Assembly: GCA_964016885.1 (NCBI GenBank)
Contig: OZ024758.1
Location: 13,578,001 to 13,642,000 of the forward strand
Direction: 5' to 3'
DNA length: 64,000 nucleotides
DNA from: Eledone cirrhosa
Taxonomy: Eukaryota
The position numbers and the translations under genes were made by a program. The notes below the pieces were generated by a model, which was not told the DNA's origin, ran no database searches, and was given only the letters and a program-made list of their open reading frames with translations. Positions 15,101 to 18,100 of this stretch are shown piece after piece; position 1 is the stretch's first letter; every line of letters begins with the position of its first letter.

Positions 15101-18100
15101 TGTATATATATATATAAAACTTATTCTAACTTTAATTTCAGCCTAATTCTGAGACAGAGCATTACTTTCTTATAATGTGTGAGATTCTGAAAGCTACTGG
15201 CATCAACACAGAATGCAAAGACTTGGCTGCTATTTCTAAACAAATCGATGCTGAAGTGAAATCTACATCTATTTTAGTTGATGTCCCAGATGTGAAAGGT
15301 AAGTTGTAATAAAAGGATAAAGATCCCATAACTACTTGTGGGGGTGGAGAAGGAGAGGAAGCAATTAATGAGTTTAACCCTTTAGCATTTACATTACTCT
15401 GTATATACTATTGTATTTTCACAGTAAAGGCTTTACCTCACATAATATCTCACATAAACATTTACATTACTCTATATATACTATTGTATTTTCACAGTAA
15501 AGGCTTTACCTCACATAATATCTCACATAACATTTACATTACTCTATATATACTGTTGTATTTTCACAGTAAAGGCTTTATCTCGCATATCATATCTATG
15601 AGATTTTGATATTATATATTTTGAGAACAATACCTTAACATTAGTATGAGCAGGCAGTTATGGCCGGTTTGAACAGAAAGAGGTGAGAGAATTCTGGCTG
15701 GATATGGCCGGTTTAAATGCTAAAGGGTTAAAAGTACTCGACAATTGTACCCGATTAAACTTAAGGCACTGACAAAAATCATTTTTTTTCCCCGAATTTA
15801 TAGTTGTAGAAATGAACATACATACCTCTAGATTATCTGACAGATATTATTTAGTATCAACATGAAAACTTTCCTATTTCTTTACACAGTCTATTTTTTT
15901 CGATAGTCAGAATCGACCCCAGTACTGGACTGGTACATATTTAATTTGTTTGTAATTCAACAAATATATATATTTATAACAGATTTGAAGCACTCAACAG
16001 ATTTTTCTGGAGTATAATATCAATGATATTAATAAATGGAAACTATATTTATAAAACCATATTTATTCTATTATATATATATATTTCAAGGGTACCAAAA
16101 CTTTGGTACGCTCTCATCAGATAAAATACAAAGTTTGTTTTATAAATATTGACATATCCAGGAATGACCTTAACGGTTTGAGTTTTACCTGGATAGTCTG
16201 GATAGGTAAAACTCAAACCGTTAAGGTCATTCCTGGATATGTCAATATTTATAAAACAAACTTTGTATTTTATCTGATGAGAGCGTACCAAAGTTTTGGT
16301 ACCCTTGAAATATATATAATAGAATAAATATGGTTTTATAAATATAGTTTCCATTTATTAATATCATTGATATATATATATATATATATATATAGATATA
16401 TTTCTTTATTAGCCACAGGGGCACAAAAGAAGGGGACAAGTACAAAGGGGGAAGTTTACATACAATAAAAACGTGTAAAATGTTATCACAAATGGAATTT
16501 AAAAAGTTAGTCGATTTTCCCCAATAGAGGGAGACAGTTTATATGGGTAACACATACCCCCGAAAAAAAATGTGCAACCCTCATCTCCAGGAGTACGAAG
16601 AGTTTGTACTCCTTTCCTCTCCTCCTCCTTTTCCTCAGCCTACAGGCTGATATAGAGAGAAGGCCCATTCACTCGGGCCATTCTCGCCACTTTCACCCAC
16701 CTTTCATAAAACTTGCTGGGGTACAGCACCTCTCTCTCCATCCTGATTCTTCTTCCAAAGTGGTATTTGAAAAAAAGAATCGGTTGTTGGCCGGAAAGAA
16801 AGGTGTCTGACCTCAGCCCTTTCAACCTTGTCCACCATACAACCTCTTTCGCCATAGCTATCACACAAAGGAAAACCGCCTCTCCTTCGTTTTTGAAGGA
16901 GGGTGGCGGTTTGATCATGACAATGGACTCGGTGGTCAACTGGATTGGTCCCATCCGCGACAATAGTCGTTCTACATATATAGATAGAAACATAAAAAGG
17001 ATAAAGATGCCATAACTCCATGTGGAGTCAGAGAGGCACCGTCATATGGTGTGTCTAGGACACTTTTAAACCTGGCAGAACCCAACCCTCTCCAGGTCTG
17101 AACACAGCCGATTTTTTTTTTCTATAGAGGAATAATCTACACCAGTACTAGACTGGTACTTTTTTTGTCGACCTCGAAAGGATGACAGGCAAAGTTGATC
17201 TCGGTGGGATTTGAACTCAGAGCATGCAATGAGGTGGGACAAATACCGTAAAGCCTTCTATCACACACACACACATACACACACACACTCTAAACAAATG
17301 GCGTTGCTATGTAGATATCTCTCACTTGACACCCCCTCCTCTCCATAGATGAGGGAGACATCATAACTTTCTATCTATCTACCTCATTCTGTCACCTCAA
17401 AAACACAGCGTTCTCCTTTTCTCTCTCTCTATCTATCTACATATCTCTCACTTGGCGTTCCTCCTCTCTATATAAAATGAGTGTGACAGACAGACTAACA
17501 GCGTTTTTATTATAATATAGATTGTTTATTTTTCCATATTTCCATGGGTTAGATGAGTCCTCTTCAGCACATCATCCTCCTACTTGTCTCTTTCTTACTG
17601 AGACCTGCTTTCATCACCTTTGCCCACCTTTTCCTCAGCTTAGTCCTATATCTTCCTTCCAATACTTCACCCAATCATTATCATCCGTATACATTACATG
17701 TCGATACCAGAGCAGCCTTCTCTCTTGCCCACAACATTTCATTCTTGTTATATCCAGTTAACCCAATCATTATCATCCATATAACATTACATGTCGATAT
17801 CAGTGTAGTCTTCTCTCTTGCACACTAACATTAAATTTTTTTTTGTTCTTTTTTTCCCTTGACATCTATCAATAGCGTCGTCTGTAGTTACATGCGATCT
17901 TTGCAAAGTAATAGTTGGAGAAGTTGAAGGCAAAATAACTGCAAAAACTACAGAAGAGGAAATAAAAGAATTTGTAGACAAATTGTGTGGGAAAATAAGT
18001 CCTAACATCGAGACCGAGGTGAGAAATTTTCTAATATATTCTAAAGTGAAAACTTCTTCCTGTTCTGTCCACAAGAATGTCTGTTACAAAGCTTGGCTAG

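Follow-up and report, generated by a model that had tools for sequence, protein, structure and literature searches.

Head-to-head hammerhead palindromes in Eledone cirrhosa DNA are probably stub insertions of Penelope-like retrotransposons

We analysed a stretch of 64,000 nucleotides from Eledone cirrhosa (GenBank assembly GCA_964016885.1, contig OZ024758.1, positions 13,578,001 to 13,642,000; hereafter the window, numbered from its first letter), which holds four copies of one palindromic, hammerhead-bearing repeat, family A, together with further families of the same design (Table 1). Copies 1, 2 and 4 sit between plus-strand pieces of saposin-like or dynein heavy chain exons. A search with one dynein exon yielded 19 hits at 60–68%, with a gastropod as the only species named, and the short interspersed elements of the window suggest an octopus-like host. 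In copy 1, the two arms are identical at all 169 aligned bases and differ by one 4-nt TATA indel (174/179 by local alignment), and they enclose the 13-nt loop GGATAGTCTGGAT. The arms stand head to head, so that on each strand the complement of a ribozyme precedes a ribozyme. Alignment and a structural descriptor thus bear out the initial annotation, which had described near-perfect arms of about 170 bp around a 13-nt loop with a complete hammerhead in each. That annotation had also reported a one-sided tail, in a feature starting at 15987; the tail is real, but it reaches to about 15937, 50 nt further, where it adjoins another repeat, and it is roughly 10 nt shorter than the tails of copies 2 and 3.

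Copy 2, previously noted at 53695–54124, repeats this design with both hammerheads present: its arms (53689–53847 and 53884–54042 by local alignment) agree at 156 of 159 positions, its 36-nt loop continues the tail-less arm and its tail hairpin occupies 54042–54063. Copy 3, noted at 27526–27872, follows the same plan with arms identical at 83 of 86 positions (27522–27607 and 27701–27786), a sole complete hammerhead (27572–27636, minus strand), a tail hairpin whose upper stem is broken and (TA)n on both flanks; it had been called partly deleted, and an unequally truncated arm fits equally well. Copy 4, an addition to the earlier set, includes an 11-nt direct piece (59734–59744) and a tail with a hairpin at 59751–59778. 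The tail is one-sided in all four copies and gives each insertion a direction, which a miniature inverted-repeat transposable element (MITE) would lack, as had been argued.

Each arm of copy 1 reads as an 8-bp stem I, CUGAUGA, a long stem II, GAAA, a palindromic helix III (AUAUAUAU) and an AUA cut site, and so shows the CUGANGA and GAAA core, NUH cut site, helices I and II and short palindromic helix III of the minimal type I hammerhead found in Penelope-like elements (PLEs). Across the window the descriptor matched eight motifs, whereas 100 block-wise dinucleotide shuffles gave no match at all. None of the 124 matches that an Rfam search of the window listed at E ≤ 1 is a hammerhead; the microRNA matches on the palindrome (74.8 and 53.1 bits, with gathering thresholds of 100 and 90) were rejected as generic hairpin matches. 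When five hammerheads are aligned, 97.9% of stem cells are paired, seven of nine stem II pairs have changed on both sides and the 10.1–11.1 closing pair is G-C in one, G-U in one and A-U in three, with pairing retained throughout. Their covariation score was reached by none of 500 shuffles, in a test on five related rows whose structure was set by the analyst. Because the stems covary, the divergence between copies is of the kind expected of functional source RNAs and not of decaying DNA, and the sequences suggest that it arose in such RNAs. Minimum free energy folds of the monomers gave the full hammerhead for none of the eight motifs, and dimer folds gave an extended helix III for three of them.

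Substitutions between the two arms of a copy number 0 in 169, 1 in 150 and 0 in 75 for copies 1 to 3, or 1 in 394 aligned bases, with two further mismatches at the junction of copy 3, whereas arms of different copies among these three differ at 4–11% of positions (89–96% ungapped identity) and are 72–77% identical to copy 4. The earlier proposal that arms of one copy are more alike than arms of different copies therefore holds, and identical arms within copies, combined with functional-type differences between them, indicate that each arm pair came from one source. Decay is evident between the arms of other palindromes in the window (3/96, 10/127 and 10/154 substitutions), which argues that homogenisation of arms is not general. 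That the inversion is private to each insertion, also proposed previously, agrees with the centres, which differ in all four copies, with the depth of 5 at the copy 1 junction and with scattered opposite-strand joints in public sequencing data; we think it probable that the inversion was made at insertion. Seven of the eight outer ends of copies 1 to 4 lie within TA runs, and candidate target duplications of 12–15 nt are seen in copies 2 and 3, that of copy 2 (14–15 nt) within imperfect (TA)n.

Part of the element is contained in 10 of the 14 listed public runs, none of them recorded as RNA, and four runs were aligned to 15880–16240. The family is highly abundant in organism A, which accounts for 7,566 contig pieces in run X1, 574 in X5 and 27,134 of 12,467,656 reads in the restriction-site-associated DNA (RAD) library X12; X4, from organism B, has 69 contig pieces of the family. 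Summed contig depth in X1 stays at 10^5–10^6 along the greater part of the arm, then falls to 2,459 beside the loop and 5 beyond it. The depth-5 contig spans the loop side to 16233, 30 nt into the second arm, where the other three runs have zero depth; the depth bins suggest a single-copy hairpin unitig, as a 31-mer assembly would give. X1 is possibly the source sample. At least seven opposite-strand joints occur, at seven different places, two of them supported by one read start each. None of 40 of the 87 variant rows in the four runs falls in the catalytic core or the 5′ strand of stem I, and the TATA indel that separates the copy 1 arms recurs widely in the family (71 contigs in X1). At loose ends, the outer end of the arm joins TA runs, and the family continues upstream with the sequence of the long arm of copy 3, by a median of 146 nt or more in four contigs of X5. 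Two further observations concern these libraries. One X4 contig matches the copy 1 arm at 16043–16164 over 118 nt with one other letter and the 4-nt indel, though the family is scarce in organism B, for which a close relative, a mixture or a transfer are alternatives; and about 20,000 of the 27,134 RAD reads in X12 come from one subfamily that shares only 16034–16080, perhaps greatly amplified or arranged in tandem and conceivably a retrozyme array.

Comparison with known systems, which covers the accessible portions of the cited sources, points to PLEs. Their insertions are 5′-truncated, often with an inverted 5′-truncated copy at the 5′ end and a 30–40-bp tail at one end, and the origin of the inverted ends and tails is stated to be open (PMC8557442); the resulting pseudo-long terminal repeats (pLTRs) stand head to head and are of unequal length (Arkhipova et al. 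2013, PMC3846280). With endonuclease-positive PLEs (Craig et al. 2021, PMC8557442; PMC3846280) the window insertions share the inverted 5′-truncated copy joined head to head at the 5′ end, the one-sided tail, unequal arms, a hammerhead in the pLTR, an AT-rich or (TA)n target and an occasional target duplication; they differ in being wholly pLTR, with no open reading frame (ORF) in any copy, and in the length of the tail. The inverted, 5′-truncated ends set head to head, together with (TA)n targets and a tail on one side only, support the Penelope-like origin that the initial annotation had suggested, and we regard each palindrome as very probably the stub insertion of a PLE; taken whole, a head-to-head, 5′-truncated pLTR stub in (TA)n is probably the best explanation. 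The design itself is already known, since minimal hammerhead pairs 100–700 bp apart on opposite strands have been read as truncated PLEs (Cervera and De la Pena 2014, PMC4209133), and the insertions are likely PLE debris of an ordinary kind. Penelope families are reported to have been recently active in Octopus vulgaris (PMC13282606), which bears on the window only if its host is octopus-like. The opposite-strand PLE hammerheads of Schistosoma mansoni (PMC4209133) share a long helix II, a short palindromic helix III and high variability with compensatory changes with those of the window, whereas minimal PLE hammerheads in that paper have a stem I of 4–5 bp instead of 8 and a highly conserved G10.1–C11.1, which in copies 1 to 3 and the solo related hammerhead (14275–14340) is replaced by G-U or A-U. 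Annotation pipelines are likely to mislabel such stubs as MITEs or microRNA hairpins.

As to the kind of PLE, we see an even chance that the source belonged to the Hydra clade. Elements of this clade carry hammerheads near the 3′ end, about 100–200 nt from it, insert into (TA)n and include Penelope-13_HM, listed with hammerheads on both strands by virtue of an inverted copy (PMC8557442, Files S1, S2 and S7); by eye, three to four of six consensus sequences also have the bulged hairpin of the window tails and AGYRCT about 40–60 nt past the cut site. The (TA)n preference is common to other clades and so is not diagnostic, and the clade is defined by protein features (RWK, DKT, a CxCX5C linker and no CCHH), whereas the window stubs have no ORF.

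Several results weigh against a PLE origin or against parts of it. A Pfam scan of 110 of 167 candidate ORFs in the window found no reverse transcriptase (RT), GIY-YIG or transposase domain, only dynein and saposin pieces above or near the cut-off, and pattern scans for further loci returned none in metagenome contigs and none in viral contigs. The tails measure 75–95 nt, compared with 30–40 bp in the papers, and copy 1 has no target duplication. In the accessible portion of PMC8557442, neither the published octopus Hydra consensus (Hydra-1_Obim) nor Hydra-1_Amil resembles the family or its hairpin, three motifs, two of them family-specific and the third short, gave no match to the family of copy 1 in the supplement, and the Hydra stems III of File S2 are not the AU palindrome that forms helix III in the window copies. 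Folding of single tail hairpins is weak, with z between −0.4 and −2.1 for seven of seven. With regard to how the arms formed, the longer tail-bearing arm of copy 1 is also explained by simple fold-back, and central deletion after insertion could be the source of unequal arms.

A biochemical precedent comes from the Poseidon element PAc of Anolis, a PLE whose protein, in vitro, cuts both strands of an AT-rich target and extends them from two initiation sites on the RNA, one on either side of the tail (Frangieh et al. 2024, PMC11167929). Such chemistry would leave the anatomy seen in the window; the tail of PAc, however, lies within the start of the ORF and spans 30–40 nt, and the likeness is one of anatomy. 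On this model, the GIY-YIG nuclease of the element would cut both strands of a TA target, and the two ends so exposed would each serve as primer for reverse transcription of RNA from a single source element. Synthesis would begin at one or the other of two sites bracketing the tail, one 4–10 nt before a hairpin at the opening of the tail and the other a further 75–95 nt outward. Neither cDNA would be completed, and the joining of the two truncated ends would leave identical arms, a copy-private centre and a tail on both arms, on one or on none. The stub is non-coding and, in a read-through transcript, would act as an intronic double-stranded hairpin rather than a self-cleaving replicon, its ribozyme being predicted to be locked in the arm duplex.

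Among nine palindromes in this one window, a small sample for tail status and arm length alike, the tail is found on neither arm (8050–8247 and 37012–37129), on one arm (copies 1 to 4 and the insertions at 26214 and 36595) or on both (37119–37398). At the centre, copies 2, 3 and 4 have a tail-less arm that outreaches the tail-bearing one, and in copy 1 the reverse is true; the loop of copy 2 aligns to family sequence as a continuation of the tail-less arm (p = 0.043 and 0.026), compared with 0.90 and 0.62 in the other orientation. Since a folding cDNA cannot add a tail that it lacks, the longer tail-less arm in three of four copies makes simple fold-back doubtful. The fold-back or template switch proposed in the initial annotation, by analogy with inverted Penelope pLTRs, hence survives as to the type of element and loses ground as to a simple fold-back of one cDNA. 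Two primings are, by a small degree, the route that we favour. The alternative within the PLE framework, in which the mirror arm is made by self-priming, either through cDNA fold-back or, as Arkhipova et al. (2013, PMC3846280) suggested for PLE junctions of the head-to-head type, on an antisense template, agrees with the identity of arms within copies and with the geometry of copy 1, where the tail-bearing arm is about 7 nt longer and a short duplication lies at the junction. It does not explain how the second arm of copies 2, 3 and 4 could be tailed by fold-back of one cDNA, an argument that does not reach the antisense-template version, and extension of both strands from two start sites has been shown in vitro for another PLE (PMC11167929); we consider self-priming rather unlikely. 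An idea of a TAA microhomology in copy 3 was dropped, as the parental continuation was not established. With several dense stub families in one genome, the two-primer and self-priming models are separable by counting.

The hairpin at the opening of the tail is a candidate start signal for reverse transcription. Its motif, CTC-Y-R...NN-GAG-YRCT, a pattern derived from the window copies themselves, occurs 10 times in the window, whereas 200 shuffles averaged 0.33 occurrences and gave 3 at most; nine occurrences lie in tails of families A, B and D, and the tenth, at 40840, is without a partner structure. The tail-less arm ends 4, 5, 6, 6 and 10 nt before the hairpin in five insertions; in a sixth it ends 6 nt before it by gapped alignment and 27 nt by an exact-match rule. 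Upper stems reach at least 3 bp in nine of 10 hairpins versus 0.36 expected, for copies that are not independent, and covary, with four different sequences (CAG/CUG, CAA/UUG, UAC/GUA and UGU/ACA), that of copy 3 being broken. Among the six Hydra consensus sequences in the accessible part of PMC8557442, Hydra-2_Amil and Hydra-2_Ajap show the hairpin, by eye, at their 3′ end and Hydra-1_Ajap at its 5′ start, Hydra-1_Crog has it loosely, and it is absent from Hydra-1_Amil and Hydra-1_Obim; the 9-mer TAGAGCACT has two occurrences in the supplement, both in Hydra. The hairpin is possibly a new signal for where copying starts. We propose, tentatively and at somewhat less than even confidence, that Hydra-type PLEs in hosts ranging from coral to cephalopod-like animals have conserved this hairpin as a cis-signal that fixes the inner RT start, and that the varying number of tails per palindrome (zero, one or two) records the action in vivo of a dimeric PLE protein that primes the two target strands independently. 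No earlier account of the tail hairpin or of PLE twin priming was found in the accessible literature; subscription papers, Repbase or supplements may hold one. If true, the proposal would explain the long-unexplained inverted pLTR-plus-tail structure and provide a marker for these PLEs that needs no ORF and a minimal RNA handle on them, as well as a defined RNA element to mutate in vitro. As a separate observation, the hairpin at 40840–40861 has a UUCG loop, and no hammerhead or inverted arm was recognised nearby.

Long palindromes undergo central deletion and conversion, and a non-autonomous palindromic element, MITE-like or PLE-derived, might move as a unit, with loops that differ by deletion and arms kept alike by conversion; TA-rich ends, high copy number and the lack of coding capacity would suit it. 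Such an element is nevertheless improbable, given that the copy 1 junction is at single-copy depth and the fold-back joints, at least seven, all lie at different places. The decaying arms of other palindromes argue that conversion is not general, and conversion would not yield two-sided changes inside stem II. Fixed symmetric MITE termini, named in the initial annotation as grounds for abandoning its interpretation, were not found: the tail is carried by zero, one or two arms, and is one-sided in copies 1 to 4, whose centres all differ, and solo copies exist.

Very improbable is the idea, also from that annotation, that the insertions are templates for viroid-like or retrozyme-like rod RNAs of both polarities, cut out by two hammerheads. 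It draws on the intact, covarying hammerheads on both strands, on the abundant circular RNAs of animal retrozymes (PMC7229834) and on the argument that retrozymes derive from PLE ends (bioRxiv 10.64898/2026.07.22.740005); non-LTR retrozymes (Cervera and De la Pena 2020, PMC7229834) are likewise short, non-coding, AT-rich and PLE-related, with a type I hammerhead. Retrozymes, however, are same-strand tandem repeats of at least two hammerhead units, from which two cuts free a monomer (PMC7229834; bioRxiv 10.64898/2026.07.22.740005), whereas the window ribozymes face away on opposite strands, with one sense hammerhead per strand and insertion, placed after its own complement, so that a single cut frees no unit-length RNA. 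Only one complete hammerhead is present in two of the four copies, and minimal motifs are reported to cleave poorly, only as dimers (PMC4209133). In full-length folds, the CUGAUGA core is predicted to be fully paired with the upstream arm (unpaired probability ≤0.001 on both strands of copy 1 and the plus strand of copy 2), and for a transcript starting at the centre the probability of stem I is 0, 0.2 and 0.5 in three folds; these models predict a ribozyme locked in the arm duplex, from which only a centre-started transcript would escape. Intronic perfect hairpins of 150–170 bp would be likely substrates for RNA editing or Dicer.

Hardly credible, finally, is an assembly or library fold-back artefact, in spite of the near-perfect arms, the lack of a piece spanning the whole stretch among the contig pieces listed and a junction seen in one of four runs, possibly the source sample: the copy 1 arms differ by an indel common in the family, in six insertions of two families the mirror symmetry ends at one and the same landmark of the element and does not run on into flanking DNA, and older palindromes have diverged arms, so that the copy 1 palindrome is not an obvious artefact of assembly.

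Table 1. Palindromic insertions, hammerheads and tails in the window
Feature	Position	Strand	Description and basis
Copy 1, one-sided tail	15937–16016	−	About 80 nt; alignment to tails of copies 2–4, 69–79% identity
Copy 1, tail-opening bulged hairpin	15989–16012	−	CTC-stem-loop-stem-NN-GAG, then TGCT; motif scan and fold
Copy 1, tail-bearing arm	16017–16190	−	Ribozyme sense on minus strand; arm alignments
Copy 1, minimal type I hammerhead	16064–16128	−	Descriptor; predicted cut 3′ of 16072; extra TATA in loop III
Copy 1, loop	16191–16203		About 7 nt probably family sequence of the tail-bearing arm (from depth); remainder repeats adjacent bases
Copy 1, tail-less arm	16204–16373	+	Ribozyme sense on plus strand; ends in (TA)n; arm alignments
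Copy 1, minimal type I hammerhead	16266–16326	+	Descriptor; predicted cut 3′ of 16318
Copy 2	53697–54121	+	Tail-less arm 53697–53847; tail arm 53884–54034; between dynein heavy chain exons
Copy 2, hammerhead in tail-less arm	53740–53804	−	Descriptor
Copy 2, hammerhead in tail arm	53927–53991	+	Descriptor
Copy 3	27522–27872	+	Long tail-less arm 27522–27696; short arm 27697–27786, begins inside stem II; tail 27787–27872
Copy 4	59615–59840	+	Tail-less arm about 118 nt; both flanks (TA)n
Copy 4, hammerhead	59661–59734	−	G10.1–C11.1; descriptor
Solo related hammerhead	14275–14340	−	Loop III palindrome UGCGCA; ends in (TA)n; without tail or partner arm
Family D (unrelated)	5960–6190	−	Solo hammerhead of Hydra-like build 6064–6134; tail hairpin 6004–6026; between (TA)n runs
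Family B (unrelated), palindrome tailed on one arm	26214–26382	+	Hairpin 26310–26335; hammerhead-like 3′ half read by eye
Family B, palindrome tailed on one arm	36595–36787	+	Palindrome 36595–36710; hairpin 36717–36742
Family B, palindrome tailed on both arms	37119–37398		10 substitutions in 127
Family C (unrelated), palindrome tailed on neither arm	8050–8247		Hammerhead-like, read by eye
Family C, second copy	37012–37129		Unequal arms joined at common GAAA

The window also contains features outside these families. An open frame of 391 codons at 31712–32887 (plus strand), giving 307 amino acids from its first internal methionine (31964–32884), has no Pfam match and no homologue among 525 candidates. 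Two others, at 37650–37952 (plus) and 28295–28891 (minus, with a three-fold internal repeat), resemble what we take to be C-terminal fragments of non-LTR retrotransposons, for which the Pfam scan gave no support. The inverted pairs at 743–1106, 4203–4634, 52293–52807 and 54141–54206 contain no hammerhead and consist of common short repeats inserted in opposite orientation. Two palindromes, at 33089–33440 (10 substitutions in 154, many gaps) and 14793–14924 (3 in 43), gave no match to the hammerhead descriptor and are older, of a family that we did not recognise.

The four hammerheads without a masking partner arm (6064–6134, 14275–14340, 27572–27636 and 59661–59734) are all on the minus strand, antisense to the saposin-like and dynein exons, and both plus-strand hammerheads are masked by a complementary arm; this bias could reflect selection against cleavable introns, for a tiny number of cases of which one is maybe intergenic. 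The three palindromes of family B share a hammerhead-like 3′ half with a 6-bp helix III, a palindromic loop and a GUC site, and all are truncated ahead of the CUGANGA core. Both copies of family C have, by eye, CAGAAGA in place of the core CUGANGA, possibly a core variant or the mark of a dead source element.

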